A stretch of 64,000 nt of DNA. It comes from Candidatus Woesearchaeota archaeon (GTDB lineage: Archaea; Nanobdellota; Nanobdellia; SCGC-AAA011-G17; PNOQ01). Where the stretch lies: assembly GCA_018652625.1 (NCBI GenBank), contig JABIBT010000021.1:14502-78501 (forward strand), in the 5' to 3' direction. The position numbers and the translations under genes are program-made. Numbering within the stretch: position 1 is the first letter of the stretch; each line of letters starts with the position of its first letter. Below, one piece after another: positions 15,048 through 45,487 of the stretch. The notes under the pieces were generated by a model, which saw only the letters and a program-made list of their open reading frames with translations, did not search any database and was not told the DNA's origin.

Positions 15048-16295
15048 TTAAATTGGTTTAGAGAAATGCCACTTTGATAGTGCTTGTTTTAGTTCTTCGT
15101 TTTTTTCTGAATATTTTTTTAATGGAATATTTTTTAGTGTTGCATCTATAGCTTGCCTTGTAGCTTTTGAACCTGCATGGGTTCCTTTGGGGTGCCCATG
15201 AATTCCTCCACCTAATTGAATGCAGATATCTTTGCCCAGCATTTTAGTTATTTCTGGTATTAGTCCGGGGTGCAATCCTCCAGAAGAAACGGGGATTGTG
15301 TCTTTTAGTCCATACCAGGGGTTTGTTATTTCATCTTCTATTTGTAAAACTTCATCTTTTGTTCCTACCAACTTTCCTATGACTGTTCCTATATGTAAGG
15401 TGTCTACTCCAATCAATCTTGCGAGCTTTGCTATTACTAACATAGACATGCCGTGTTTTGGATTTCTATCAAATGCTGCGTGGAAGGCTCTGTGTGCATG
15501 AATGGCCATTTTTAGTTTTTGAGTTTCGTTTCTTAATGTCTGAACTGCTGCCCAGCCAACCGTCATTATATCTACCATTACATATCTAAATCCGTATTTT
15601 TTGACTAATCTCGCTCTTCTTATCATTTCATTTGTTTCTGCAGTTACATTGATGAAATAATCTTTTTTTTCGCCAGTTATTTTTTCTGCTTTGTCTCTTG
15701 CTTTTGCACAGGCCTTTAATCTTGATTCGAATTTGTTAAAATTCTGATCTGTTAAATTCTCATCATCTTTTAGGAAATCTACTCCGCCAGTCCATGCATC
15801 AAATCCAACTTTAGTATGCTCTTTTGTTGTCATTCCCACTTTTGGTTTTGGAACTGTGGCTATTAGTTGCCTGTCTTTTATTTTCATGAATTTTCTTACT
15901 CCTTTAATCCCAAATTGGGGCCCTTTGAATGATTTTACATATTTTTTTGGAAAATGAATATCTTCAAGTCTTAGATTGTTAATTGCTTTCATTCCGAAAA
16001 TATTTCCTGCTACAGAAGATAATAATTGTGGGATACTACCGAGCTCAAATAATTCTATTGGATAAGCTATTTTTAAATAAGGCCCCTTTATTTCAAAAGC
16101 TCTTGCTCTCATTTTTCTTATTCTGGGAGTTAAAGTAGAAAGAGTTGTCCAGGTACCATTTGAGGATTCTGCGGCTATTCTTCCTGCTGCTTCTTTTATA
16201 GAAATTCCTTTAGCTGGTTCGAATCTGAATAGACATACTAAGTCTGTTTTTTTTGGTTTATATTTTAAATCTACAAAATCCAGATATTGACTCAT
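15048..16295 (-). CDS. rbcL: Form III (archaeal-type) RuBisCO large subunit.
   Basis: GGVDFLKDDENL contains the carbamylated-Lys KDDE motif. IHAHRAFHAA and SSGGLHPG ... LGGGIHGHP are also present. It shares an operon with AMP phosphorylase and R15P isomerase. Confidence 0.9.
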   Translation of the reverse strand: MSQYLDFVDLKYKPKKTDLVCLFRFEPAKGISIKEAAGRIAAESSNGTWTTLSTLTPRIRKMRARAFEIKGPYLKIAYPIELFELGSIPQLLSSVAGNIFGMKAINNLRLEDIHFPKKYVKSFKGPQFGIKGVRKFMKIKDRQLIATVPKPKVGMTTKEHTKVGFDAWTGGVDFLKDDENLTDQNFNKFESRLKACAKARDKAEKITGEKKDYFINVTAETNEMIRRARLVKKYGFRYVMVDIMTVGWAAVQTLRNETQKLKMAIHAHRAFHAAFDRNPKHGMSMLVIAKLARLIGVDTLHIGTVIGKLVGTKDEVLQIEDEITNPWYGLKDTIPVSSGGLHPGLIPEITKMLGKDICIQLGGGIHGHPKGTHAGSKATRQAIDATLKNIPLKKYSEKNEELKQALSKWHFSKPI

Positions 16296-16936
16296 TTGGT
16301 TACCTCTTTTATTAATTTTGGTAGTTCTTTTATATCTTTAATCTTGTAATCTGCTTCTTTTAAATCTTTCCAGACTTGTTTTGGGCTGGTTAGGATAATT
16401 ACTGATTTTACTTTTGATGATTCTGCAGTTTTTATATCTTGTAAACTATCCCCCACCATGAATTGAACTTTTTTCTTTAATTCTTTTTCTGCTTTGTAAA
16501 TTTCATCTGGAAATGGTTTTGCTCTCCTTACATCATCATATCCTATTATTACTTTGAATAGTTTTTTATCTATTTTTGTTTGTTCTAGAATCAACTCTAT
16601 TTTTGTGTGCGTATTATTACTTAGAAGGCAAAGGCAATATTTTTTTGATAATCTCTTTAATATTTTTTTAGTGTTTTTGTAAGGTTTTATTCCTTCTAAT
16701 GTGTTTTCTCTTTCTTTTTCAAAATCTCTTCTTATTTGTTCTATTTTTTCTTTTTTGATTTTTGGAGAAATTATCTTTATTTGATCTTTTAAAGTCATTC
16801 CCCACATATCATATAATTGATTTCTCTTAACTTTTATTCCATTTTTTATAAATGATTTTAATTCTGCATCCACATTCCAATCGTGTGTGTCTACTAATGT
16901 TCCATCTAGATCGAAGCAAATTATCATCTTATCCAA
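16292..16936 (-). CDS. HAD-superfamily phosphatase (subfamily IA; phosphoglycolate or sugar phosphatase-like).
   Basis: HAD motif I is ICFDLDGTLVDT, motif II is LLSNN, and motifs III/IV are K ... MVGDSLQDIKTA. It overlaps both operon neighbours. Confidence 0.7.
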   Translation of the reverse strand: MDKMIICFDLDGTLVDTHDWNVDAELKSFIKNGIKVKRNQLYDMWGMTLKDQIKIISPKIKKEKIEQIRRDFEKERENTLEGIKPYKNTKKILKRLSKKYCLCLLSNNTHTKIELILEQTKIDKKLFKVIIGYDDVRRAKPFPDEIYKAEKELKKKVQFMVGDSLQDIKTAESSKVKSVIILTSPKQVWKDLKEADYKIKDIKELPKLIKEVTK

Positions 16937-17727
16937 GAATAAGTTTTTTTAACTTTTTTTACAAATTTCTTAGGTTTAAGTATTCCCAAACCCGAGACTA
17001 TTGCCGTTATGTAGTCTGGACCAACTAATTCGAAAGCAGGATTTTTTATAGTTATATATTTATTTGATTTTTTCCAAATTTCTTTTGTATCTCTTTGTTC
17101 TATTTTTAGTTTTTTTGGAGAATATTTCCATGTGCTTGTGAGAATGTATACTGGAATTTTGTAAGTCCTTGCTAATTTTGCTATCATTTCTGAGCCTATT
17201 TTATTTGCTACTTCTCCATTTGGTGTAACCATGTCTGCACCCAATAATATTACGTCTGATTGTGATATGGCTTCTTCTGCTCCAGAATCTACGAAGTGTG
17301 TGTTTTTTATTTTAAGTTTTGCCAAATCCAAAGAAGTTATTCTTCCTTGATATCTTGGTCTTGTTTCTGTGTTTAACACTTCAAACTTTTTCCCGTGTTC
17401 TTTTGCGTATTTTAATGTGTTAATTACAGTTGTAGAATGACAGTGTGTGAATACCCTTGAATTATTTTTTATTAGACGTGCTCCTAAAAGTGTAGTTTTT
17501 TTCTCCGAATCTTTTAGATAATTTTTTGCAGTTTCTATGTCTGCTATTTTTGAAAACATAACTGCATTTTTTAATGCGGGTTCAGTTGGTCTGGCCGATA
17601 ATATTTTTTTTACTGCTTTTGGAGAACTGTTTATTTCTAATGCTTTTAAACCTGCTAGAGCAATCTTATTTGCTCCTTGTATTTTTAAAGATTTTATATC
17701 ATTATAGATTTTATTAAATTTATTCAT
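16924..17727 (-). CDS. Ribose-1,5-bisphosphate isomerase (eIF-2B alpha/beta/delta family).
   Basis: IQGANKIA, RPTEPALKNAV, THCHSTTV, TETRPRYQGRIT, GADMVTPNGEVANKIGS and NPAFELVGPDYITAIVS run parallel to the Thermococcus enzyme. Confidence 0.8.
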   Translation of the reverse strand: MNKFNKIYNDIKSLKIQGANKIALAGLKALEINSSPKAVKKILSARPTEPALKNAVMFSKIADIETAKNYLKDSEKKTTLLGARLIKNNSRVFTHCHSTTVINTLKYAKEHGKKFEVLNTETRPRYQGRITSLDLAKLKIKNTHFVDSGAEEAISQSDVILLGADMVTPNGEVANKIGSEMIAKLARTYKIPVYILTSTWKYSPKKLKIEQRDTKEIWKKSNKYITIKNPAFELVGPDYITAIVSGLGILKPKKFVKKVKKTYSWIR

Positions 17728-19437: not shown

Positions 19438-19644
19438 ATGGGTGATAAAAATACACGTTCTATTGTAAAGGCAATAACTTGGAGAGTTTTTGCTACTTTA
19501 ATTACTATGCTTTTAGTGTTTTTTATAACTAAGGAGGTTGCTCTTTCTTTTGGAATTGGTATTTTGGATGTATTTTACAAATTATTATTTTATTATTTTC
19601 ATGAAAGAACATGGAATCATATTAAATGGGGGAAAGATTCATGA
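19438..19644 (+). CDS. Small membrane protein, DUF2061-like.
   Basis: It is 68 aa with two TM segments ([25 protein letters not shown] ... [10 protein letters not shown]). From memory this family is often found in sulfate-activation clusters. It has an ATGA overlap with cysN. Confidence 0.5.
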
Positions 19645-21512
19645 ATAAAGAATCTTTAAAATTTGTAATTGTTGGCCATGTTGATCACGGTAAAAGTACA
19701 CTTATTGGTAGGTTATTGTATGATACAGGTTCTTTGAAAGAAGGAGTGATAGAAAAAGTTAAGAGAGTTTCAGAAGAAATTGGAAAAGAGTTTGAATATG
19801 CTTATTTATTGGATGCCTTAAAAGAAGAGCAAGAGCAGGGGATTACTATAGATACAACTAAGATTGAATTTTCTACCGATAAGAGACAATATACTATTAT
19901 TGATGCCCCGGGGCATAAAGAGTTTTTAAAAAATATGATTAGTGGTGCTTCTAATGCTGAGGCAGCTATTTTAATTGTTGATGCTGATGAAGGAGTCAGA
20001 GAACAAACTAAAAGACACGCGTATATTTTGTATTTGCTTGGAATAAAACAAGTTCATGTTATTATTAATAAAATGGATTTAGTTGATTTCTCACAAGAAA
20101 GGTATGAGGAAGTTAGAGATGAGATTAAAGATTATTTGGTGAGGTTGGAAATTTTTCCTAAAAAATATATTCCTATTTCTGCAAAATTAGGTGATAATGT
20201 TATTAAAAAATCTCCAAATATGGAATGGGGAAATAATGAAACTGTGTTGAGTGCTATTGATGATTTTGAAAAATTGGAAGGATTGGAGGATAAACCTTTA
20301 AGATTTCCAATCCAAGATATTTATAAGTTTGATGATCGAAGAATAATTTCTGGAAGAATTGAATCTGGATTTCTTGAAGTTGGACAAGAAATTAGGTTAT
20401 TGCCTTCTAATCAAAAGACAAAAGTTATCTCAATTGAACAATGGAAAGAAAAGGAAAAGAAAACTTCTTTGATGTGTGGAGAATATGCAGGAATAACCGT
20501 ATCGGATAACCATTTTTTTAAAAGAGGAGATGTTATTACTTCTCTAAATGATCTGCCTACAATTAATAATTTGTTTGGATGTAGTTTGTTTTGGATGGGA
20601 AAAAATGATTTAATTAAAGGAAAACAGTATATTTTAAAATTAAATTCCCAAGAAATTCCTTGTGAAGTTTATGAAGTCCAAGGAGTTATTGATTCTAACA
20701 CTTTAGAACAAATTCCCGGAAAAGATTTTTTATCTAAACATGATGTGGGAAATATTATTATTAAAACTAAAAAACCTATTGTTTATGATCCCTTTAACGA
20801 AATTCCTACCAACGGTAGATTTGTCCTTGTTGATGAATTACAGGTTTCTGGTGGGGGAATAATTGAGAAAAGTTCTAAAGAGATTAAGGAAAGAAGAGTA
20901 ATTGAGACCAGCAAGGAAGTTTCTGTTGTTCCAAAATCTAGTTTGATTGAACCAAAAGATAGGCATAAGAAACAAGGGCATAAGGGAAATGTGGTTTGGC
21001 TTACTGGAATTCCGGGTTGTGGAAAAGAAATGATTGCAAAAAATTTAGAAAAAGAGTTGTTTAAGAAAGGAAAATCTGTTTGCTATTTAGATGCTAGTAA
21101 TATTCGATTGACTTTAAATTCTGATTTGAATTTTTCTAAAGAATCAAGATATGAACATATAAGGAGGCTAGCAGAAGTTGCGAATATTTTATATAATCTT
21201 GGACATATTGTAATTGTTTCTGCAGTTAGTCCTTACTCTGATGGAAGAAAATATGCTAGAAGTATAATTGGAGTGGATAATTTTATAGAGGTTTTTGTTG
21301 ATATGCCATTAGATATTTGTAAAGAAATTAACCCAAGGGGAATTTATACAAAAGCAGAAAAAGGAGAGCGAAAAGGGGTCCCCGGTGTAGATATAGAATA
21401 TGAAAAATCTGATTATCTGATTCATACCCTGAATATTAATAAAAAAGAGTTTAATATATCTGAGAAAGTAACTGAATTGCTTTCTTTATTGGATAAAAAT
21501 ACCAAGTTATAA
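19641..21512 (+). CDS. cysN: Sulfate adenylyltransferase subunit 1 (GTPase) fused to a degenerate APS-kinase-like domain.
   Basis: The GTPase motifs [14 protein letters not shown] and NKMD are present. The C-terminal ~185 aa align with APS kinase, but with GIPGCGKEM in place of GLSGSGKST and [11 protein letters not shown] in place of LDGDNVRHGLN. Confidence 0.8.
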
Positions 21513-36638: not shown

Positions 36639-37571
36639 ATGGGGGTACATATAAAAATGGATAATAAAGAAATAAAGGGTCCAGATTTTTTGGTCATAGG
36701 TTTACAGAAATGTGGGACTTATTGGATAACCGGGTTGCTTAATAATCATCCAGAAATTAATTGTGTCCCTTCTTTACCCCAGGGGCAGGATGGAATTTTA
36801 GAAGGCCACATATTTGATAATTTAAAATCTATAGATGATGACGGAGGTAAGCATTTTTGTGAGGTTTTTAGTAGGGTACATAATGGGTTTTTTTCAGATT
36901 TAGTCCCAATGTTAGAAAAATTACCAAGACATAAGTTTTATGATTTGATGAAGGAAAGGTATATTGCTTATTGTAATCAATTTAGAACAAAGAGATTGTT
37001 TGGTGAAAAAACTACGGAGTATGTGTGGTGTTTAGATATTATAGATTACTTTTTTTCAGACATAAAAAAATTATGTATTCTCAGAGATGTTAAAGACAGA
37101 ATTGTTTCTTGGCATTTTCATCAGGTTAGGAAAAAAAGGATTCCTGAGGCCCAAGCAGAAACTGTAAGTGATGAACTTATAGCAGATTATTGCAAACGTG
37201 TTAAAAGGGAGTATGGGTCTCTTTTGTTGTATCATAATAATATTCATTGTTTTTCTTATGAGGATATGAAACATGAACCAAAAAAAGTTGTTAAAGAAAT
37301 TCTTAGTTATTTAGATGCCGATGTTAGTGAAGAAATTATAAATGAATTAATTGAGAAAGCATCCTTTGGAAGTTTGACGAAAGTTAGTAAGGTTGGAGGC
37401 GATTATGAGAGAAAGGTAGGTCAAGAGTTGAGAACAAGCCATTTTAGAAAAGGTGTTGTCGGAGATTGGAAAAATTATCTTAAAGAGTATCAATTAGTTT
37501 ATATTAGGGAGCAACTTAAAGAATTACAAGATAAAATAAATCAAAAGTTTGGGTTTAATTTAGAAATTTAA
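36639..37571 (+). CDS. PAPS-dependent sulfotransferase.
   Basis: The 5'-PSB loop is GLQKCGTYW (P-K-x-G-T-T-W type). The 3'-PB motif is RDVKDRIVSWHFH (R-x7-S type). Confidence 0.75.
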   Translation: MGVHIKMDNKEIKGPDFLVIGLQKCGTYWITGLLNNHPEINCVPSLPQGQDGILEGHIFDNLKSIDDDGGKHFCEVFSRVHNGFFSDLVPMLEKLPRHKFYDLMKERYIAYCNQFRTKRLFGEKTTEYVWCLDIIDYFFSDIKKLCILRDVKDRIVSWHFHQVRKKRIPEAQAETVSDELIADYCKRVKREYGSLLLYHNNIHCFSYEDMKHEPKKVVKEILSYLDADVSEEIINELIEKASFGSLTKVSKVGGDYERKVGQELRTSHFRKGVVGDWKNYLKEYQLVYIREQLKELQDKINQKFGFNLEI

Positions 37572-38977
37572 TTATCTTTTTCTATTTCCTTTATGTGGTC
37601 GATAATTCCTTCTGTTACTAAATCAAGATTTTTTTCATCATATAATGATTTTTCTAATTTTCCTATGAACTGGAAATTCCCTGGACGGACGGACTTTTTA
37701 AGTGCGACTATAAATTTTAATAATTTTTCATAATCAAATTTAGAATTTAGAGCTTTTTTAAGTGTTTCATTAAATTTGTAAAAATCTCTTATTGGGTAAA
37801 CTAAGCCGGAGCGATCGTAAAATGCTGTTCCAAATGTCAAAACTGGTTTTTGGTGAAGCATTGCTTCCCAACCTGCATTAGAATTTATTGTTATGGTACA
37901 ATCGGCTTTTTCTATTAGATCATGACTACTTATTTTGGGTTTAAGCAGTCTTACATTCTGCATTTTTTTTAGTTTTCTTAATTCTTTTAATGATGTTTCT
38001 CCTGCACCATTGGGATGTTCTTTTACATATAATTTGTATCTTATTGGTAAATGATTAGAAATATTTTGTATAAAACTAATTTGATTAGCATATTGTGGTG
38101 CTCTTACTAAGATGGCCGCATCTGTTGCTCGGTGTAAGGGATAATAAATAAATTTTTCTCCTTCTACTGGTTTTTCATAGAAAATTTTTGTAAATCTTTT
38201 CCTTATTGATCTTGCACCGAGTTCTCCAGCTATTTTTAATAAGTCCGCATAAGGGTTTTTCATCTTTTCTTTTACGAAATTTATATAAAATCGTTTTACT
38301 GTTAGTTTAACATTATCTAGATTTATTGCTGGAGGAATTATAACTAAATTAACTCCTTTCTTTTTTTCTATTGTTTCTTTCATATAATTTTCTGCCCATT
38401 CTCTTTCTTCCTTAGTTAGTAGTTTATCTTGATTTTCTTCCCAATATTTATCTAATAAATAAATTCTACCTATGTGATCTGGAGAGATTGTGAATGTGTT
38501 TGGTAGGGGTTCTACTTTTCCTGATAAATGAATTCCTCCCTGTTTTTTTATTATGGCTCTTGGGACTTCATTTATGAACCTTTCAACCCCTCCAATAATT
38601 AAATCAATGCTATTGGTTTTGAAGTATTTCTCCCAAAATTTAAAATGTTGAACTAATCCAATTAATGCATTTTTTCTTCCTTTTCTAGAGTAGTTTTTAT
38701 CTCCCAGCAAGAGTAAGTTCATACTTGGGATATCATATTTTTTTTCATAGTATTCAAGATAATTATTTAATCTATGTTGCGGATTAAAACTTAAAATATC
38801 ATCTAAGATAAATGTAGCATTTACTCCTCTTTCTTTGAAATAATTCATGCATTCTTTAGAATAGGTTGCATATTGAATTTTATATCCTTTTTTTTCTAGC
38901 CTTTTCCCAAAAGGATAGGTTCTTTCTGCAAATTGTATGGCATTGGATATAAAAAGAATGTTTTTTATTTTTTTCAT
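37568..38977 (-). CDS. Capsule polysaccharide biosynthesis protein (Capsule_synth, KpsS/KpsC-like).
   Basis: The resemblance is from memory: YYPLHRATDAAILVRAPQY ... YVKEHPNG and a GT-B-like layout. A TATA box lies about 26-33 nt upstream (39003-39010). Confidence 0.5.
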   Translation of the reverse strand: MKKIKNILFISNAIQFAERTYPFGKRLEKKGYKIQYATYSKECMNYFKERGVNATFILDDILSFNPQHRLNNYLEYYEKKYDIPSMNLLLLGDKNYSRKGRKNALIGLVQHFKFWEKYFKTNSIDLIIGGVERFINEVPRAIIKKQGGIHLSGKVEPLPNTFTISPDHIGRIYLLDKYWEENQDKLLTKEEREWAENYMKETIEKKKGVNLVIIPPAINLDNVKLTVKRFYINFVKEKMKNPYADLLKIAGELGARSIRKRFTKIFYEKPVEGEKFIYYPLHRATDAAILVRAPQYANQISFIQNISNHLPIRYKLYVKEHPNGAGETSLKELRKLKKMQNVRLLKPKISSHDLIEKADCTITINSNAGWEAMLHQKPVLTFGTAFYDRSGLVYPIRDFYKFNETLKKALNSKFDYEKLLKFIVALKKSVRPGNFQFIGKLEKSLYDEKNLDLVTEGIIDHIKEIEKDN

Positions 38978-39051: not shown

Positions 39052-39633
39052 TTATAATTTAAGATATTTCATTATTTCTTCTACACACCCTTCTACGTTT
39101 TTATCCTTTGTATTTATTGTTATTTCTGGATTTTCCGGAACTTCATAGGAGTGGCTTATTCCTGTGAATTCTTTTAGTTCACCAGATCTTGCTTTTTTAT
39201 ATAGCCCCTTGGTATCCCTTTTTTCACATTCTTCTAGTGGGCAGTCTACATACACTTCAATAAAGTCTTCTCCAGCATAACTTCTTGCTAAATCCCTTTC
39301 TTTTTTTAATGGACTTATGAAGGAAGCTATTGTGAATATTCCAGCGTCATAAAATAATTTTGTCAATTCTGCCAACCTTCTTATGTTTTCTTCCCTATCT
39401 TTTGTTGAGAAGCCCAAATCCTTGTTTAGGCCGTGTCTTACATTATCCCCATCAAGAACATAACTTAGAATTCCTTTTTCGTGTAGTTTTTTCTCTAATT
39501 CAATAGCTATAGTTGACTTTCCAGAGCCAGATAAGCCGGTAAACCAGATTACTTTGTTTTTGGTTTTAGTTAGCTCTAACCTGTTTTCTCTTGAAATTTT
39601 TCTACTGTGCCAAATTATATTTGGTGAAGGCAT
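39052..39633 (-). CDS. cysC: Adenylylsulfate (APS) kinase, canonical.
   Basis: WFTGLSGSGKSTIA, LDGDNVRHGLNKDLGFS and SFISP are all intact. Confidence 0.9.
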   Translation of the reverse strand: MPSPNIIWHSRKISRENRLELTKTKNKVIWFTGLSGSGKSTIAIELEKKLHEKGILSYVLDGDNVRHGLNKDLGFSTKDREENIRRLAELTKLFYDAGIFTIASFISPLKKERDLARSYAGEDFIEVYVDCPLEECEKRDTKGLYKKARSGELKEFTGISHSYEVPENPEITINTKDKNVEGCVEEIMKYLKL

Positions 39634-39654: not shown

Positions 39655-39684
39655 TTTTTATAGTTTATGATTTTGTTTTCTATT
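39655..39684. repeat. 30-nt exact direct repeat, copy 1 (TTTTTATAGTTTATGATTTTGTTTTCTATT).
   Basis: It is identical to 40794-40823. A related TAGCT-containing tail and a TATA-like box follow at the same ~20-nt offset. On the minus strand its 5' part reads CTATAAAAA, about 27-30 nt upstream of the cysC start. Confidence 0.85.
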
Positions 39685-39981
39685 GTAGCTAATCTCTCTA
39701 AACTTATATAGACTAATTTATTTTATATATTGCCCCAAATTAATTATTGAATTTATTGTATACTTTATTGAAATATCATAAATATTATTTAATGTATTTA
39801 ATAGCTCTGTTATAGAAACTTATTTAAAACAGAAGAAGTTTGATATAAAGATATATTTTTTAATATAAAAAGAAAAAATGTTTAAATATTTTATAAAATT
39901 TAATAAATTAAGGAAGATGTGAACATGGCTGAAATTAATTTGCCCAAATTTAAAATTATTTGTATTAATGGAGGATAGATA

Positions 39982-40731
39982 ATGGAGAAAAAAATGGAAA
40001 CAAAAAAAAGTTTAGATTATTATGATTATTATAATAATAAAGATTATGCTTTAAAAAGATTTAAGAAATTATCTAATTCAAATTATAGAAAGTTTTATGC
40101 TCATTTTTATAATAGAGTTTCAGTTAAAAAGGAGATGAAAGTTCTTGATGTGGGGTGTGGAGTTGGTTATTTTACTAATTTAGTAGAATTAAAAGGAGCA
40201 AAGGGGTTTGGTATTGATATCTCTAAAGAATGTATTAAATTAGCCAAAGAAAATTTTAAAGGAGAATTTTTAGAAGGAGATATTACTAAATTGCCCTACG
40301 AAAATAATTTTTTTGATGTAATCCATTGTGATGAAGTAATTGAACATTTGTCTTTAAATGAGGCTAGATTGATGGTAAATGAAATGCAGAGGGTATTAAA
40401 GAAAGGAGGGAGAATATATGTCAAGACCCCAAATAAAGAAGCTACCGGATATAGATGGTTACTTCAAAAGTTTAAGGGTCAACAAAAAATAAAGAAAAAT
40501 GATACCCATATATTTGAGTATACAAAACGGGAGTTGTATAATATGTTTAATAAATTTGGAATAAATTATATAAAACAAGAAACTTATATCCCTAATAAAG
40601 GTGTTTTAGGGGTTTTTTTGGGTAGTTTTTTTAGTTTTCCTATTTTGAGGAAATGGTTCGGAATAAAACTATTTATGGAAGCGAAGAAAATTAATGAACT
40701 AGATGATGTTGAGAAAATTCTAAATACTTGA
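39982..40731 (+). CDS. Class I SAM-dependent methyltransferase.
   Basis: Motif I is VLDVGCGVGYFT. GGAGGA lies 6 nt upstream of the ATG. Confidence 0.75.
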   Translation: MEKKMETKKSLDYYDYYNNKDYALKRFKKLSNSNYRKFYAHFYNRVSVKKEMKVLDVGCGVGYFTNLVELKGAKGFGIDISKECIKLAKENFKGEFLEGDITKLPYENNFFDVIHCDEVIEHLSLNEARLMVNEMQRVLKKGGRIYVKTPNKEATGYRWLLQKFKGQQKIKKNDTHIFEYTKRELYNMFNKFGINYIKQETYIPNKGVLGVFLGSFFSFPILRKWFGIKLFMEAKKINELDDVEKILNT

Positions 40732-40793
40732 GTTTTTTTATTAATATTTTTAATTTTATATTTTTTACATTAAAAATTTATTTTTTGATATAA

Positions 40794-40823
40794 TTTTTAT
40801 AGTTTATGATTTTGTTTTCTATT
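40794..40823. repeat. 30-nt exact direct repeat, copy 2.
   Basis: It is identical to 39655-39684 and lies 1139 bp downstream. It ends 20 nt before the TATA box at 40844-40851. Confidence 0.85.
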
Positions 40824-40843: not shown

Positions 40844-40851
40844 TTTATAAA
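40844..40851 (+). promoter_or_regulatory. TATA box (TTTATAAA).
   Basis: It lies 32 nt upstream of ATG 40876, which supports that start. Confidence 0.5.
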
Positions 40852-40875
40852 ACCAACTTTATTCCACAAATTACG

Positions 40876-41781
40876 ATGCATAGGTTAAATTTTTGTGGAA
40901 CTTTATGTTTGCCCAATCAGGTTGAGGGATATCCTTCTAGGGGTATGAATGTTGTTAAGGATTTTGAAGAAGGGGCAGTGATTCCTATGGCAAAACCTGC
41001 AGCTACAAGACATATACTTTATTCTTCTAGACCTGTTGAGTATAATCTGAAAACTGACGAATCTAGAATATTACAAGCAAAGGATCTTGATAGTGAAGAT
41101 AAAATTAGTGCGTTATTGGCTAATCCAGATATGGTTGTTGGTAGTCCAGATCATGCCTTGGATACGGATTCAAGGTTGGATGCTGTTTTTTCTAGAAGGG
41201 ATGAAAATTTAAGACATATTGTTGATAGATTGTTCACTTATGACCAAAGAGATGTTCTTATTTTTATAAATAATGGAATAGGTACCAATGGAATTGTTAG
41301 AGATGAAAATGGTCTAGCCTATGCAGTTAAAAAAGATGGAAAAATATTTGATCAACATCAAAAAGGACTTCCTGGAAGTTATCAAAATTCTGCTCATGAA
41401 CATATTCATGTAATGCCCGCAAGCTCAGAACTGGATAGTGCATTGTTTTCGGGTTTGAAGGAGTTACATAAACATTATTCTTCCCATTGGGTTCCTTTAA
41501 ATGACCGTATTTCTGGAGTGAGAGATGGGGAATTACCTGAATTTGAAGCTGTGCCCTGTATAGCTATTTCTTTTATTGAATATGGGGCTAATTTGAATAG
41601 AGAATTATTATTTGGTTATTTTCCTGCAAACGATTTAATTGGAGAACAGAAAGGAATGGCGGGAATAGCAAGAAATCTTCTTCAAGCGCATAGTGAATCT
41701 CAAGGTATGTCTTTTGAAAAAGAAGATGTTAGAGATATGGTTAGTAGAACTGCAGATTTTTATGCTAAAATACTTAGTTGA
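40876..41781 (+). CDS. Hypothetical protein with a histidine-triad-like H-x-H-x-H motif; possibly a HIT/GalT-superfamily nucleotide transferase or phosphorylase.
   Basis: NSAHEHIHVMP resembles H-phi-H-phi-H-phi-phi. The composition is visibly less Lys/Ile-rich and more GC-rich than the neighbours. I recognise no other motif. Confidence 0.3.
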   Translation: MHRLNFCGTLCLPNQVEGYPSRGMNVVKDFEEGAVIPMAKPAATRHILYSSRPVEYNLKTDESRILQAKDLDSEDKISALLANPDMVVGSPDHALDTDSRLDAVFSRRDENLRHIVDRLFTYDQRDVLIFINNGIGTNGIVRDENGLAYAVKKDGKIFDQHQKGLPGSYQNSAHEHIHVMPASSELDSALFSGLKELHKHYSSHWVPLNDRISGVRDGELPEFEAVPCIAISFIEYGANLNRELLFGYFPANDLIGEQKGMAGIARNLLQAHSESQGMSFEKEDVRDMVSRTADFYAKILS

Positions 41782-41784
41782 TTT

Positions 41785-43197
41785 TTGCTTAATAAGTTTT
41801 ATAAGTTGGATGTTTCTGCCCGTATTATGTTACAAGATTACTTAATTGATGAGCAATATAACTCTCCTTTAAAATTATTAAAAGAGAATAACTTGTCTTA
41901 TGTTTTATTCAAACAAACTAAAAAGTACAATCATTCTATTGGGGGACTTGATATTTTGATTACTCCAATAAAAAAGTATAAAGAATCTATCGATTTGTTG
42001 AATAAAAATGGATTTTCTATTTATTTTAGCGAAAAGAATGAGCCATACAAGACTATGATGGTTAAATACTGTGAAGGATTCTTATTAGTTTTACATATCC
42101 ACCGGCAAATTGGTTGGTTGGGGATGAAGTGTCTAACTGCAAATGAGGTTGAAAAAACTAAAATTAAATTAAATGAATTGGTTTATATTCCTTCTTTTGA
42201 AAATCAATTAATGATCCATATATCTCATATATTATTTGAAAATTATAAAATTGAAGAATATGAATATAGGTTGATTTCTGATTTATTAAAAAAAGAATTG
42301 GATTGGAAATATATTTATTCTATAACTGAGGCGTATGGTTGGAAATATTCTTTCTCTAGATTTATTGGATGTTTTAAAACCAACCCAGAGGAATTGTTTT
42401 CTAATTCTAAGAATTTTCCTTATTCTTTGAAAAATTCTTTCACAGTCCCTGCAAATTTTAAAAGAATTTTTAGTAAAGATTTTGGTTTGATTAGTTGGTT
42501 TTTGTTTAAACAGATTTTTCAATTCTTTTCAAAAAGAGCTTCTCTAAAAAGGAAGGGAACTTTGATTGCTTTTTCTGGAGTTAATGGTTCTGGCAAAACC
42601 ACCCTAAGTAAGGGTCTCTTGAAGGCATATGCAAAACTCTTTGATAGACTAAATCTTAATTCAGAATATTATTACTTTGGTTGGAAACCAATTTTTCCTT
42701 GGACAAAATTAATTTCAAAGAAAATGGAAAAAAAGGGTAAAAGAGTATATGATGAGTCTATAAATAAAGAAAAGATACCAAATTTTAGTTTAAAATTGGA
42801 ATTATTGTTTTTGTATGTTTTTATTGAAGATTTATTTAGATACTTGTTTCATATTTATCCAAAGTTAAGAAAAAGAGAATTGGTAGTGTCAGACAGATAT
42901 TTTTATAGAATGTATGGGCAATATCCTTATGCCAAAAATAGCAGATTGATAAAATACTTGGTTAAAATGTTTCCTAGGCCAGATTTTACTTTTTTGTTGG
43001 AGGTTGAAGTGGATATATTGGCAGAAAGAAGAAAAGACCAGACTAGACAAAACTTAGAAGAGCAACGTGATAATTATACAAATTTAATTAAGATTGTAAA
43101 ACCAATAAGAGTTAAAAGTAGAAAGTTTGTTGACAAAAACTTATATAAATTGATTGAAGTTACATGGAAAGATATGTTTAGGAAACTGGGGTATTGA
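41785..43197 (+). CDS. Fusion protein: N-terminal minimal-nucleotidyltransferase-like domain plus a C-terminal thymidylate-kinase-like P-loop domain.
   Basis: The N-terminal part YVLFK ... GGLDILI ... LLNKNGF resembles uncharacterised NTase families. The C-terminal part has the P-loop FSGVNGSGKTT and VVSDRYFY (the TMK DRY motif). The start is TTG, 3 nt after the upstream stop. Confidence 0.45.
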   Translation: MLNKFYKLDVSARIMLQDYLIDEQYNSPLKLLKENNLSYVLFKQTKKYNHSIGGLDILITPIKKYKESIDLLNKNGFSIYFSEKNEPYKTMMVKYCEGFLLVLHIHRQIGWLGMKCLTANEVEKTKIKLNELVYIPSFENQLMIHISHILFENYKIEEYEYRLISDLLKKELDWKYIYSITEAYGWKYSFSRFIGCFKTNPEELFSNSKNFPYSLKNSFTVPANFKRIFSKDFGLISWFLFKQIFQFFSKRASLKRKGTLIAFSGVNGSGKTTLSKGLLKAYAKLFDRLNLNSEYYYFGWKPIFPWTKLISKKMEKKGKRVYDESINKEKIPNFSLKLELLFLYVFIEDLFRYLFHIYPKLRKRELVVSDRYFYRMYGQYPYAKNSRLIKYLVKMFPRPDFTFLLEVEVDILAERRKDQTRQNLEEQRDNYTNLIKIVKPIRVKSRKFVDKNLYKLIEVTWKDMFRKLGY

Positions 43198-43198
43198 G

Positions 43199-44497
43199 AT
43201 GTATGAATCAACTGAAATTATAAAAATAATATTGAATGAATTTGATTCAAGTAATCTTGATTATGCAATTATTAGAAACTATGGTTTTTTGTCTGATGAT
43301 AATGAACAAGTTGGAAAGGATGTAGATATTGTCATAGAAGAAGAAAAGGCTAATGAATTTGGAAGTATACTTACTTCTAATGGTTTTTTTAGGCAACCTA
43401 TAAGCCCCCATTCTAGTCATTCTGGATTTTGGAAATATTTACCTGAAGAGAAAAAGTTAGTTAAATTCCATTTTCATGAAGGTGGCATTTCTGGGAATAG
43501 TATACCTTATCTTAAAGCAAAACAAGTTTTGGAAAGAAGAAGAAAAATGGACTCTTTTTATGTAATATCTGATGAGGACTTGTTAATTAATATTCTCTTT
43601 CATTCAAAATTAAGCGGAGAAAAAGCTAGATATGCTCCATTAGTTAGAGAGCTTCGTAAAAAGAGATTAGATACTAGTTATGTTTTTAATTCAATAAAAG
43701 ATATTTTGGGTAGAGAATTGTCAAAGAATATGTTTCATGCATATAAGGAATTAAATTTTGAGAAGTTGGATAACTTGAAACCCGAAATTAAGAAATCCTT
43801 GGTTATGAGAAATCCTTTTCCAGTTTTTAGGACTTTGTTTTTGAGCTCTTTATGGAAAATTGGTAGATTGATTAAACCTAGCCCATTAGTGTGCTTTATT
43901 GGTATGGATGGTTCTGGGAAAAGCACCGTTACTAGTAACTTATCTGATGTTTTTAAGAAGAATAAATTGAAGTCTTCATTAATATATACTGGGAGAGGTA
44001 GAAATAATCTTCTTCCAATACAATTCTTTGGTAGAAAGTATAAAGCTAAAGAGAAAAAAGAGGAGACTTCGGAAAAAAGATCAAATAAATCTTTGAAAAA
44101 GAAATTAATTTATTCATTAGCTGCTCCGGTTTTTGCTTTGGATTTGTACTTAAGATATTTGAAAGATATTTTTCCTAAAAGAATTAAAGATGAAATTGTT
44201 ATTGTAGATAGGTATGCTACCGATTTATTATTAATGAAAAATGTTAATAATAAATTAAGAAAAGTATTGTATTCTATTTTTCCAAAGCCAACAATGGTTT
44301 TTTATTTGTATAATGATCCAGAACTTCTTTATCAGAGAAAGCCCGGCCATCCAGCAGGAGATTTAGAAAGGCAGGAAAAGTTATTTGATATGATTTTACC
44401 AACGTTGGATAATTTGAATAAAATTAAGTCTGAAAGTGAAAAACAAACGTTAGATGATGTTTCTAATTTATTATTTCCCAAATTTTTAAACCATTGA
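43199..44497 (+). CDS. Paralogous fusion protein: NTase-like N-domain plus TMK-like P-loop C-domain.
   Basis: YAIIRNYGFL ... GKDVDIVIEEEKA ... LTSNGF is followed by IGMDGSGKST and IVDRYATD. The start is set at ATG 43199, 1 nt after the upstream stop, rather than the ORF-track 43154. Confidence 0.45.
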   Translation: MYESTEIIKIILNEFDSSNLDYAIIRNYGFLSDDNEQVGKDVDIVIEEEKANEFGSILTSNGFFRQPISPHSSHSGFWKYLPEEKKLVKFHFHEGGISGNSIPYLKAKQVLERRRKMDSFYVISDEDLLINILFHSKLSGEKARYAPLVRELRKKRLDTSYVFNSIKDILGRELSKNMFHAYKELNFEKLDNLKPEIKKSLVMRNPFPVFRTLFLSSLWKIGRLIKPSPLVCFIGMDGSGKSTVTSNLSDVFKKNKLKSSLIYTGRGRNNLLPIQFFGRKYKAKEKKEETSEKRSNKSLKKKLIYSLAAPVFALDLYLRYLKDIFPKRIKDEIVIVDRYATDLLLMKNVNNKLRKVLYSIFPKPTMVFYLYNDPELLYQRKPGHPAGDLERQEKLFDMILPTLDNLNKIKSESEKQTLDDVSNLLFPKFLNH

Positions 44498-45487
44498 ATT
44501 GTATAATTTTAGGTACCTATTGAACATCTTTTTCTCAGTGTATTCTTCTAAAATTCTTTCTCTTGCTTTTTTTCCTAAGTTAATTCTTTTTTCTTTATTA
44601 TTCAATAAATCTACAATTTTGTTTTTTATTTGATTTGGAGAATTTGGTTTGACATACTCTACTGAATCCTGTGCAACTTCTTTTAGATTTTCTAGATTTG
44701 TTGTGATAACTGCCCTTTCACATGCCATCGTTTCTAGAAGTACCAATGGAATTCCTGTTGCTCCAGCCTTAGTTCTATATGGAATTACTATTATGTCGCT
44801 TTCATTGTATGTTTTTTCTATGTTTTCTACTTTTCCAAATACTTTTATTTTTTTGTTATGTTTTTTTGCAAGCTTTTCTGTTTTTTTAGAAAATTCTGAA
44901 AGGTAGATATGTAATTCTACATTGGATTTTATTTTCCCAAATGCCTTTATTACGTCATAAACTCCTTTCAAAGAATCGTTGTGTCCAAAATATGAAACTC
45001 TCAAGGTATTCCTTTTTATTTTTAAATTTTTGAATCTTTTTTCATCTATTCCGAAAGGGATAACCCTTATATTTGAAAGGTTTAGTTCATTTTTCATGTG
45101 GAGAGTCGGAACAACTAAAATGTTCATATTTTTTAGATAGTGTTTTTTTAATTTCAGGGGGATTAGTGAACTTAAGGATGGTAAGAACATATCTTTAATT
45201 CTTGAGTGCCCTTTTGGATACTCTTGCCCAAGTTTGAGATTGGATTCTAATGTGTTGAAGAAAGTTTTGTACCCCTTTTCATTTATGTATGAATAAAGAG
45301 AGTATATTTTTTTTATCTTTTCATTTTTTATTGAGGAAAAGAATCCATGAGAGTGAATATGTCTGAAATCTTCCCCATTATTTACAAATTCTATCTTATT
45401 TTTTTGCATAAACTCTTTTATTTTTTTAGATATAATAGTTAGCCCTTCGGTTGAAAATTCTCCTGGTGAGAGATAATTAACTTTCAT
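44486..45487 (-). CDS. Glycosyltransferase family 4.
   Basis: GATGIPLVLLETMACERAVITTN is the E-x7-E region. Confidence 0.7.
   Translation of the reverse strand: MKVNYLSPGEFSTEGLTIISKKIKEFMQKNKIEFVNNGEDFRHIHSHGFFSSIKNEKIKKIYSLYSYINEKGYKTFFNTLESNLKLGQEYPKGHSRIKDMFLPSLSSLIPLKLKKHYLKNMNILVVPTLHMKNELNLSNIRVIPFGIDEKRFKNLKIKRNTLRVSYFGHNDSLKGVYDVIKAFGKIKSNVELHIYLSEFSKKTEKLAKKHNKKIKVFGKVENIEKTYNESDIIVIPYRTKAGATGIPLVLLETMACERAVITTNLENLKEVAQDSVEYVKPNSPNQIKNKIVDLLNNKEKRINLGKKARERILEEYTEKKMFNRYLKLYNSMV

Follow-up and report, generated by a model that had tools for sequence, protein, structure and literature searches.

The window analysed here is a stretch of 64,000 nucleotides from a Candidatus Woesearchaeota archaeon. 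The part of interest is a run of three plus-strand genes, together with the genes on either side of it. The features discussed below are these:

37568-38977, minus strand: GT-B 'Capsule_synth' (KpsC/KpsS-like) enzyme, cluster c13 (PF05159, E=5.7e-15)
39052-39633, minus strand: canonical stand-alone APS kinase gene, cysC (PF01583, E=5.5e-67)
39655-40823, unstranded: insertion with a methyltransferase gene at 39982-40731 and a copy of a perfect 30-nt direct repeat on either side
40844-40852, plus strand: TATA box of gene 1, TTTATAAA(A) = TTTATAAAA (direct reading of the sequence)
40876-41781, plus strand: gene 1, a divergent HIT-superfamily protein of 301 aa (open reading frame)
41798-41804, plus strand: second TATA-like box, TTTATAA, before gene 2 (sequence and comparison with genome G003)
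41827-43197, plus strand: gene 2, type B NTase-like/TMK-like fusion, 456 aa (from ATG 41827)
43199-44497, plus strand: gene 3, type A NTase-like/TMK-like fusion, 432 aa (open reading frame)
44486-45487, minus strand: GT4/GT1-family glycosyltransferase, cluster c1, a recurrent neighbour of the fusions (Pfam)

An earlier note on this DNA described three plus-strand genes behind a single promoter. The three open reading frames are all there (40876-41781, 41785 or 41827-43197, and 43199-44497), and the TATA box at 40844-40852 does stand about 30 nt ahead of the ATG of gene 1 at 40876, in an upstream module that by sequence comparison is also common to the close relative L001. However, the promoter is not the only one: the TTTATAA box lies 22 nt ahead of the gene 2 ATG, and is kept almost base for base in the intergenic region between cysC and gene 2 of G003, a genome of the same genus that has no gene 1. 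This box is likely to be gene 2's own promoter. Since a second, conserved TATA box precedes ATG 41827, translation of gene 2 probably begins there, rather than at the upstream TTG at 41785, which would give 470 aa. Within the window, gene 1 could be co-transcribed with genes 2 and 3.

The description of gene 1 as HIT-like is upheld by its motif, its conservation pattern and its fold. It carries the motif AHEHIHVMP, with the triad H174-x-H176-x-H178, and a family alignment adds H46, Q170 and N132-G-I-G, with H46, Q170 and H176 invariant throughout the gene 1 family. At the sequence level the HIT resemblance is limited to the motif, and none of the Pfam families HIT, GalT and CwfJ is matched; profile comparison with the PDB gives NitFhit and the HIT protein 3ksv as best matches. 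The AF2 model (pLDDT 85.5, pTM 0.88) finds meaningful Foldseek matches that all belong to the HIT superfamily, these being two spliceosome chains (3jb9_c and 9l5r_U, both at probability 1.0), Cdh, HIT proteins and GalT, with E-values of merely ~1e-3. Gene 1 is apparently a separate HIT-superfamily nucleotidyl hydrolase or transferase with a predicted competent His triad, from a rare family found in only a handful of DPANN lineages, and APS or an NDP-sugar is a possible substrate. Its unusual composition had also been pointed out, and gene 1 does have a higher GC content (0.35 vs 0.26-0.29) and less Lys (4.7% vs 12-15%) than its neighbours. The excess GC stems from the amino-acid composition, however, and its GC3 of 0.18 is the second lowest among ten genes compared, so that there is no sign of foreign codon usage.

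The reading of genes 2 and 3 as NTase-like/TMK-like fusion paralogs is borne out; the two proteins align collinearly, with 27% of residues identical across 415 aa (E=1e-13). At 40.9 and 33.0 bits, both C-terminal domains pass Pfam's PF02223 gathering threshold of 27, and both carry a P-loop, a DRY motif and the lid Arg. In gene 2 the P-loop is GVNGSGKTT, followed by DRY; in gene 3 it is GMDGSGKST, followed by D337-R338-Y and the lid R380. The fusion AF2 model (pLDDT 93.9) matches TMKs in Foldseek at TMt ~0.7 and probability 1.0, and the acceptor-phosphate arginines of TMK seem from alignment to be kept as R319 and R338. The C-domains are a thymidylate-kinase-fold P-loop kinase without the thymine-reading residues of TMK. 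The P-loop Lys, DR(Y) and lid Arg are intact in both proteins. In the N-terminal domains the DxD is complete only in gene 3, where GKDVDIVI contains D41 and D43; the GGLDILI of gene 2 retains a single catalytic Asp, as Gly has replaced the first residue of the DxD. The fusion N-domains have no canonical pol-beta G[GS] motif, and in the A1 and B groups a His (FHFH / LHIH) occupies the position of the third carboxylate. Among 81 family members, PF02223 is matched by all 81, PF14907 by 53 and PF10706 by 2; gene 3 singly reaches 17.8 bits for PF14907, under the gathering score of 31.2. The N-domain profile has a sole match in the PDB, LinA/Lnu(A), with the DxD aligned and a marginal E=0.1. Judged by these profiles, the N-domains have a predicted pol-beta-type nucleotidyltransferase fold, PF14907-like, with LinA as the nearest solved relative. 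Residues invariant in the family are D43, G235, G238, G240, K241, D337, R338, R380 and Q392. The hydrophobic and basic insert reported between the domains resolves into two separate elements: an all-helical linker (about aa 125-225, with an amphipathic helix at its end) and a Lys-rich loop that follows the P-loop within the kinase domain itself, at about aa 277-299. We found no characterised member of the fusion family, in agreement with the earlier note, which had recognised no described system here.

The fusion family splits into two clades, type A, in which the DxD is kept, and type B, in which the first Asp is lost; type B is monophyletic in the tree (support 0.93). Exactly two copies are present in 21 of the ~27 sampled genomes with full-length fusions. 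All ten two-copy loci examined pair one P-loop type A with one partner, which is type B in nine and in L040 an intermediate that is sister to type B. Since G061, G070, G166 and G183 have a single copy, the A/B pair is not obligatory. Sub-groupings within the two clades are congruent across lineages, which suggests that A and B are inherited together vertically. Genes 2 (type B) and 3 (type A) are an ancient paralog pair. The host genome also holds a separate canonical tmk, and likewise a candidate cmk gene.

It was proposed that the fusions might travel with glycan genes, and they clearly do: all 25 fusion loci examined are glycan loci. A GT4 glycosyltransferase of cluster c1 is found in 24 of them, and a c4 or c13 protein in 18, the other 7 having neither within 10 kb. 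The Pfam matches of c4 are PF04464, PF07388, PF05159 and PF02350, and ten genomes, belonging to several families, have a PF05159 match at most 7 kb from a fusion. In L045 and L036 the order A-GT4-B-c4 forms an operon with overlapping stop and start codons. In the window, the c13 enzyme corresponds to c4, the polymerase-like protein next to type B fusions elsewhere. The conserved unit is type A, a GT4 glycosyltransferase, type B and a KpsC/TagF/polysialyltransferase-like GT-B enzyme. GT-B enzymes of the KpsC/KpsS-TagF-polysialyltransferase kind take their donors in CMP- or CDP-linked form.

The presence of gene 1 varies from genome to genome. The two copies of the direct repeat (39655-39684 and 40794-40823) delimit a methyltransferase insertion that is missing in L001, L003 and G003, where homology breaks exactly at the repeat. 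G003 (~85% nucleotide identity) has the order cysC|gene2-gene3-GT4, whereas the close relatives L001 and L003 have cysC|gene1-gene3, without gene 2. The stand-alone cysC, whose motifs are intact, in contrast to the degenerate CysN-fused copy, is head-to-head with gene 1 in the relatives and with gene 2 in G003. Gene 1 and a fusion occur together only in this lineage. All four other species genomes screened that have a gene 1 homolog lack the fusion (L023, a fifth species, lay outside the screen), and the homolog there has housekeeping neighbours (RFC, aaRS, RsmB, SufBD); conversely, gene 1 is absent from the ~26 other fusion-bearing genomes of the sample. The neighbourhood survey that the earlier note had called for accordingly places the fusions with glycan genes and never in defence islands, and the distant gene 1 homologs among housekeeping genes; its view of the three genes as one module does not survive.

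The host is a DPANN archaeon with a small genome, and we consider it reasonably probable that the region is a mosaic within a hypervariable island of surface-glycan genes, in which genes 2 and 3 are the B/A pair of the conserved GT4/GT-B unit and gene 1 is separate, so that there is no three-gene module. Only in this lineage would gene 1 have entered, or been kept, between cysC and the fusion genes. Our best guess for the fusions is a putative kinase-plus-transfer step in surface glycopolymer synthesis. Types A and B would act together, probably as a heteromer, with type A as the catalytic transferase and type B, whose NTase site is broken, as the partner coupling it to the GT-B polymerase. 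The kinase domain may use ATP to phosphorylate an intermediate bearing a phosphate or hydroxyl, which would next receive a nucleotidyl, phospho-head-group or glycosyl unit from the NTase-fold domain. The product might be a phosphodiester-linked element, or a primer, of a capsule- or teichoic-acid-like polymer.

Gene 1 adjoins an APS kinase gene both in the window group and in L011, which are separate lineages, and its position may therefore not be accidental. One reading, which we regard as unlikely, is that gene 1 partners the adjacent APS kinase and not the fusions: as an APS hydrolase, APS phosphorylase or ADP-sulfurylase of the HIT type, it would adjust or supply the APS pool on the way to PAPS for glycan sulfation. 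Gene 1 is head-to-head with the window's sole canonical cysC, and has the same placement in L001-L005; its L011 homolog (~40% identical) lies 18 nt from a CTP_transf_like-APS-kinase fusion, and in G259 an APS kinase gene is 15 kb from the homolog. The window contains a sulfotransferase and cysQ-cysD-cysN, and APS is among the substrates of the HIT enzymes Fhit, Hint and Apa1/2. However, G280 and G424 have gene 1 homologs but lack any APS kinase, the APS kinase of G069 is ~570 kb away, and the gene's neighbours elsewhere are the housekeeping genes. The orientation is divergent or convergent and never that of one operon, and the complete CysDN route to APS leaves no pathway gap to fill.

For the fusions, a somewhat more doubtful idea is that the NTase-fold domain, like LicD or fukutin, transfers a head group from a CMP or CDP donor, and that the TMK-fold domain rephosphorylates the released CMP/NMP locally. 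Cytidine-nucleotide chemistry is indeed abundant around them: 7 loci have CTP_transf_3/NeuA-like genes and 8 a CDP-alcohol phosphatidyltransferase, 3 carry a PntC-Ppm fusion, L008 has a Cj1416/1418-like gene, and the c4/c13 enzymes are akin to CMP/CDP-donor families. The apparently kept acceptor-phosphate arginines fit as well, as do the lone type A copies that adjoin phosphonate genes (L030, L031) and the published Ppm flanked by TMK and PF14907 (PMC8942020). Against this, PF14907 is distinct from the LicD family, the genome already has its tmk and candidate cmk genes, and the idea gives no reason for keeping a second paralog whose transferase site is broken.

It is improbable that genes 1-3 are a co-transcribed module for an unusual nucleotide-activated donor, with the HIT enzyme working directly with the fusions. 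The genes are tightly spaced on one strand behind a TATA box, all three have nucleotide-handling folds, and a type A fusion directly follows gene 1 in five related contigs; but the co-occurring contigs are closely related and syntenic (71-75% identity), and so are not independent. The gene 2-gene 3 arrangement beside cysC in G003, the separate distributions of gene 1 and the fusions, and gene 2's own conserved promoter box largely refute the module as a conserved unit. A horizontally acquired nucleotide-based defence or toxin module, the earlier note's alternative, is very improbable indeed: conflict systems do include NTase-fold and P-loop kinase domains, the island is mosaic and the base composition of gene 1 differs, but the PADLOC matches are weak P-loop noise (best E=0.0015), the context is that of glycan genes at all 25 fusion loci examined, the GC3 of gene 1 is native-like, toxin, antitoxin, nuclease and sensor partners are all absent nearby, and the A/B sub-groupings suggest vertical co-inheritance.

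Compared with known systems, gene 1 shares with the HIT superfamily (Fhit/Hint, GalT, CDP-diacylglycerol pyrophosphatase and the Cwf19/Drn1 C-terminal domain) the motif Q-N-x-x-H-x-H-x-H-h-x-P with its invariant middle His, the invariant upstream His in an 'H-h-L-Y' strand and the N-N-G-I-G loop. It differs in its length of ~300 aa, with ~35 aa inserted after the NNGIG loop and ahead of the triad, a C-terminal extension that is helical and ~110 aa long, and an N-terminal H-x-L-N-F-C-x-x-L-C-L-P motif. The C-domains of the fusions have the fold of thymidylate kinase (PF02223; Sulfolobus tokodaii ST1543, PDB 2plr/4nzy), its G-x-(D/N)-G-x-G-K-(S/T)-T P-loop, DR(Y), lid Arg and PKP-x-x-x-x-L strand, but score 44.8 and 31.4 bits, far under the dTMP-kinase equivalog cut-off of 83.25, have lost the base-reading S...AYQ residues after DRY, and add both the Lys-rich insert after the P-loop and the NTase-like domain. 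The N-domains have the same order of helix, strand with (K/R)-D-x-D-h-h-h, and helix as PF14907 (NTP_transf_5), LinA/Lnu(A) (PDB 4wh5) and ANT(2''), although the scores are weak, G[GS] is missing, type B is without the first Asp and His stands in place of the third carboxylate.

Bifunctional kinase/nucleotidyltransferases such as HldE and Fkp also combine a kinase with nucleotidyl transfer in one polypeptide, and also in glycan loci, but their folds are wholly different (a PfkB or GHMP kinase with a cytidylyltransferase-like domain or pyrophosphorylase), and they do not come as A/B paralog pairs. The phosphonate family GCF 540, in which Ppm is flanked by a thymidylate kinase and PF14907, was described as unusual and uncharacterised (PMC8942020). 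It places the two Pfam families of the fusions beside a PEP mutase, the source being silent on domain fusion and organisms; Ppm occurs in merely 3 of the 25 fusion loci, as the PntC-Ppm fusion, and not in the window. [quoted passage not shown] PsmK is HPr-kinase-like, and the two are separate proteins from a bacterial host, acting on a peptide; their kinase-then-transfer logic is nevertheless the same as that proposed here for the two fused domains.

The main interest of this part of the window lies in a conserved, uncharacterised pair of fusion genes, types A and B, together with their GT4 and GT-B glycosyltransferase partners; a rare, divergent branch of the HIT family is of secondary interest. 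The fusions have recognisable folds and conserved catalytic-type residues, they occur as A/B pairs, and in glycan loci they are coupled to GT4 and polymerase-like GT-B genes. The features discussed here are:

17.8-21.5 kb: cysQ-cysD-cysN operon, with a degenerate APS-kinase-like domain on cysN
39052-39633: cysC, stand-alone APS kinase
39655-40823: methyltransferase insertion (gene 39982-40731), with a perfect 30-nt direct repeat on both sides
40844-40852: TATA box TTTATAAAA, about 30 nt before the ATG at 40876
40876-41781, plus strand: gene 1, HIT-like protein
41798-41804: TTTATAA box in the spacer between genes 1 and 2, 22 nt before the ATG at 41827
41827-43197, plus strand: gene 2, type B fusion
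43199-44497, plus strand: gene 3, type A fusion

The assembly is 658 kb long and 86.7% complete, and its contig C32 contains the window; overall GC is 0.31. The public-record labels of its relatives are Woesearchaeota or Nanoarchaeia, both DPANN archaea. Genes 1-3 are surrounded by a large surface-glycan island, which holds a CMP-sugar synthetase, a UDP-GlcNAc 2-epimerase, a polysaccharide deacetylase, a sulfotransferase, a PF05159 'Capsule_synth' GT-B enzyme, the APS kinase, methyltransferases, GT1/GT4 enzymes and a GDP-mannose-dehydratase/DegT branch. The APS-kinase-like domain fused to CysN (20940-21509, the C-terminus of ORF 19626-21512, with cysQ and cysD just upstream) has GLSGSGKST, LDGDNVR and TGIS all replaced, PGVD being among the replacements. 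The proposal of two functional APS kinases, with a second, Cj1415-like role, is weakened, because this copy is degenerate and only the stand-alone cysC is canonical. What looks like an archaeal AMP/nucleoside salvage set is grouped at 15048-17727: a homolog of the RuBisCO large subunit (15048-16295), a HAD hydrolase, and a protein of the IF-2B family (16924-17727).

An earlier note had read genes 1-3 as one nucleotide-handling module expressed from a single promoter. Its observations are largely borne out. The three plus-strand ORFs are present as it described them, as is the TATA box before gene 1, but the TTTATAA box before gene 2 speaks against a single promoter. The spacer containing this box is near-identical to the stretch between cysC and gene 2 in G003, a same-genus genome without gene 1; since it is kept there, gene 2 likely begins at 41827 (456 aa) under a promoter of its own. 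Nucleotide comparison of the window with its close relatives, G003 and the loci L001 and L003, showed that the gene content varies. G003 (~85% identity) has cysC / gene 2-gene 3-GT4-methyltransferase, without gene 1 and without the methyltransferase at 39982, while L001 and L003 (72-90% identity) have cysC / gene 1-gene 3 / methyltransferase, without gene 2, GT4 or the methyltransferase at 39982. Among the arrangements compared, the window alone has gene 1, gene 2, gene 3, GT4 and both methyltransferases. Homology with all three relatives breaks exactly at the 30-nt repeat, and all three lack the insertion. The repeat is a duplication of the promoter module proximal to cysC. Outside the window lineage, no combination of gene 1 with a fusion was found in the four other gene 1-bearing species genomes screened. 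The arrangement of genes 1-3 is thus a mosaic, and the one-module reading is not supported, because gene 1 is missing from G003, which carries the fusions, and the fusions are missing from those four genomes, which carry gene 1. Annotation should not pass the three genes on as one operon or module.

The unusual composition claimed for gene 1 is borne out, in that it is GC-richer (0.35 vs 0.26-0.29) and Lys-poor (4.7% vs 12-15%). It has the second-lowest GC3 (0.18) of ten genes compared, so the GC difference reflects protein composition and not foreign codon usage. Searches of the Pfam, NCBIfam and PADLOC models gave no match for gene 1, and the family is very rare: it gave three clusters in a 5.8-billion word search, 20 representatives among 1.84 billion proteins, and, by pattern search of the GTDB genome collection, five species/loci, all Woesearchaeota or Nanoarchaeia. 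An earlier pattern set had found none in genome contigs and one short contig in metagenomes. Homologs are present in 5 of the 401 sampled genomes of the phylum, the window's genome included.

The histidine-triad-like motif attributed to gene 1 is carried as AHEHIHVMP, within a family block Y-Q-N-x-A-H-x-H-I-H-(I/V)-x-P. In the alignment of 19 sequences H46, D96, G134, G136, G139, Q170 and H176 are invariant. The triad is H174-E-H176-I-H178-V-M, with H174 at least 90% conserved and H178 being His, or Gln in two sequences; the GalT branch has the same Gln at this third position. The invariant middle His is the pattern expected of a HIT nucleophile. The N-terminal motif H-x-L-N-F-C-x-x-L-C-L-P is also conserved, and may bind metal. 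The top matches of the family profile to PDB sequences were NitFhit (1ems, E=0.089) and the HIT protein 3ksv (E=0.76), both with weak E-values and both aligned at the triad; NitFhit is also collinear at the upstream GH-x-L strand. The AlphaFold2 model, built from nine sequences, has a pLDDT of 85.5 and a pTM of 0.88. All its interpretable Foldseek matches belong to the HIT superfamily, with E-values of only 1e-3 or weaker: two ~300-aa spliceosome chains (3jb9_c and 9l5r_U, probability 1.0, TM 0.41-0.44), the CDP-diacylglycerol pyrophosphatase Cdh (2pof), the small HIT proteins 3lb5 and 2eo4, and GalT (6k9z and 5in3). The two spliceosome chains come from yeast and thermophile structures, and are probably the HIT-like C-terminal domain of Cwf19, a domain confirmed to be present in the spliceosome complex. 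Gene 1 was rejected as a prokaryotic CwfJ domain, there being no CwfJ Pfam match, so that the likeness is structural only. None of the 19 members matches the curated HIT-clan models PF01230, PF04677 and PF04676; the one gene that PF04677 picks up is the canonical HIT of 139 aa, PF04676 picks up none, and hhalign of gene 1 against Fhit aligned only a 19-residue motif (probability 11%). The intact triad and the HIT-type fold of the model support the earlier HIT-like reading, and we conclude that gene 1 is a divergent HIT-superfamily enzyme, probably catalytically competent. It is distinct from the housekeeping HIT, for which the same genome has the canonical 139-aa gene on contig C2. Gene 1 adds a very rare and structurally divergent branch to the superfamily.

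Distant gene 1 homologs (33-37% identity) adjoin genes for the RFC small subunit, a Cas4-like nuclease, TyrRS/TrpRS, ThrRS, NFACT, RsmB and SufBD; the 10 kb around them contain no homolog of the fusions, of APS kinase or of Capsule_synth. The sole recurring neighbour of the family is APS kinase. The two genes are head-to-head in the window lineage, they lie 15 kb apart in the sampled genome G259, and on the short groundwater contig L011 a gene 1 homolog is tail-to-tail with, and 18 nt from, a 341-aa fusion (1157-2182, minus strand) of a CTP_transf_like cytidylyltransferase-type domain (HxGH) to a canonical APS kinase. This fusion is a possible minimal enzyme of the PAPS-synthase-like or Cj1416/Cj1415-like kind. 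An APS-related role of gene 1 together with cysC is possible; APS kinase is missing altogether from two of the genomes that carry gene 1. A role as the missing ATP sulfurylase was rejected: PF01747 is absent, but the window has both cysD and cysN.

Genes 2 and 3 are paralogs, as the earlier note had it, being collinear over their full length (27% identity over 415 aa, E=1e-13). Its description of them as NTase/TMK-like fusions, with an N-terminal nucleotidyltransferase-like and a C-terminal thymidylate-kinase-fold domain, is supported by the 81 collected family members, all of which match PF02223 and 53 of which match PF14907 at E<=0.01 (best E = 2.6e-9). The hydrophobic/basic insert placed between the domains is two separate things: a linker of helices, the last of them amphipathic and directly before the P-loop strand, and a Lys-rich loop, which sits within the kinase domain.

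Both C-terminal domains pass the PF02223 gathering threshold (40.9 and 33.0 bits vs 27), and in the model of gene 3 (pLDDT 93.9) the domain superposes on thymidylate kinases (Foldseek, TMt ~0.7, probability 1.0). Invariant in the 81 sequences, in gene 3 numbering, are G235, G238, G240 and K241 of the P-loop, D337-R338 of the DRY motif, Q392, and R380, the lid arginine that had been named as a catalytic residue to look for. Both domains miss the cut-off of the dTMP kinase equivalog TIGR00041 (44.8 and 31.4 bits vs 83.25), after DRY they have A-T-D-L-L-L or F-Y-R-M-Y-G in place of the base-reading S..AYQ segment, and a canonical tmk is found elsewhere in the genome. On these three grounds the fusions are TMK-fold kinases with an acceptor other than dTMP, and they should not be named thymidylate kinase. 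The proposal that they fill a gap in CMP kinase was rejected, a candidate cmk being present in the genome.

The list of Foldseek matches for the whole gene 3 model was filled by TMK, and the N-terminal domain was instead compared with PDB sequences through its profile. The only match was LinA, a lincosamide nucleotidyltransferase, with K-D-x-D placed on R-D-I-D at a marginal E=0.1. Gene 3 scores 17.8 bits with PF14907 (gathering cut-off 31.2), and gene 2 has no match. Both catalytic carboxylates of the strand 2 motif, D-h-(D/E)-h, are present in gene 3 and the A1 clade (D41-V-D43); D43 is the only residue of the pair that is invariant in the family. The h-G-[GS] motif was not found 9-13 residues before the DxD, type A having I-R-N-Y and type B F-K-Q/C. 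The reading of these domains as nucleotidyltransferase-like is supported, but gene 2 has lost the first Asp.

Typing from the alignment divides the family into two clades. Type A (gene 3) keeps the D-x-D, or has a variant with the Asp on the next strand, and has the P-loop G-(M/P)-D-G. Type B (gene 2) has lost the first Asp (G-L-D in gene 2, N-L-D in the rest), has the P-loop G-V-N-G, and is monophyletic with support 0.93. Full-length fusions are present in ~27 of the 401 sampled genomes, and 21 of these have exactly two copies. Among ten two-copy loci examined, type A was present in all and a type B partner in nine; at locus L040 the partner of type A is intermediate, and sister to type B. 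The same locus groups cluster together within both clades, and therefore the duplication is ancient and the genes have been inherited as a pair. Fusion-like matches broken by several stop codons each were seen in a number of DPANN genomes (G236:C5:17519-18196, G217:C1:427049-427951, G317:C13:511-1302 and G371:C85:3527-4291), that of G236 adjoining a strong PF05159 hit; these are possibly pseudogenes or remnants of the module.

The ORFs of 25 fusion loci from several DPANN families were clustered. The fusions have glycan genes as neighbours in every one of these loci, with a GT4/GT1 glycosyltransferase in 24 of the 25, which answers the earlier question of whether they travel with glycan genes or with defence islands. 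The alternative of an embedded defence or toxin module is not supported, PADLOC giving only matches restricted to the P-loop (E>=0.0015) and no locus resembling a defence island. A GT-B protein is present in 18 loci, either of the PF05159 type found in the window (6) or a protein of ~530 aa, c4 (12), which has weak matches to TagF-like Glyphos_transf, polysialyltransferase, Capsule_synth and Epimerase_2. In 11 loci c4 immediately adjoins type B; the order is GT4-B-c4 in L036 and A-GT4-B-c4 in L045, where stop and start codons overlap. Independent whole-genome searches found PF05159 hits <=7 kb from a fusion in 10 genomes. Other recurrent neighbours are a CDP-alcohol phosphatidyltransferase (8 loci), a NeuA-like cytidylyltransferase (7 loci), GT2 plus DUF2304, AglB, flippase-like proteins, and a PntC-PEP-mutase fusion (3 loci). 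At locus L008 (3515-7071), immediately upstream of a type B fusion, a 980-aa CTP_transf_like, PPDK_N and PEP-utilizers protein is encoded ahead of a Peptidase_C26/GATase protein, an arrangement reminiscent of Cj1416/1418/1417, the O-methyl-phosphoramidate genes of Campylobacter.

Despite their tiny genomes and a life attached to host cells, DPANN archaea carry large surface-glycan islands, and to our knowledge almost nothing is known of how their surface polymers are made. We infer that the A/B pair acts in making or decorating a capsule- or teichoic-acid-like polymer. Common to several DPANN families, and translationally coupled to a polymerase-like GT-B and GT4, it offers a concrete, clonable entry point into DPANN glycan chemistry, and could be the first case in which a function is assigned to PF14907 and to a non-dTMP TMK-fold kinase.

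As to mechanism, we lean tentatively towards a kinase-then-transfer logic. The TMK-fold domain would phosphorylate an intermediate, the NTase-fold domain of type A would next move a nucleotidyl, phospho-head-group or glycosyl unit, and type B, being degenerate, would serve as the partner that is tied to the polymerase. Alternatively, the fusions might carry out a LicD-like transfer from CMP/CDP donors and rephosphorylate CMP locally. A more speculative reading is that the pair might be a new two-component glycopolymer enzyme, in which TMK-fold and pol-beta-fold domains would install phosphodiester-linked units (phospho-glycosyl, phospho- or phosphono-head group, or nucleotidyl primer) and, with a KpsC/TagF-like polymerase and GT4, build a DPANN surface polymer, type B being a catalytically degenerate adaptor.

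Two published systems bear comparison. At L030 (11906-13204), and also at L031 and L046, a PntC-like cytidylyltransferase is fused to PEP mutase and accompanied by an Fe-ADH-like gene, which indicates phosphonate head-group synthesis beside single type A fusions. These loci match 'GCF 540', a published oddity in which PEP mutase is 'flanked by thymidylate kinase and PF14907' (PMC8942020), and which the fusion family would explain. The nearest precedent for the kinase-then-transfer logic is PsmK/PsmN, where an uncharacterised DxD-dependent NTase-fold enzyme adds a hexose to a kinase-made phosphate (PMC6993621).
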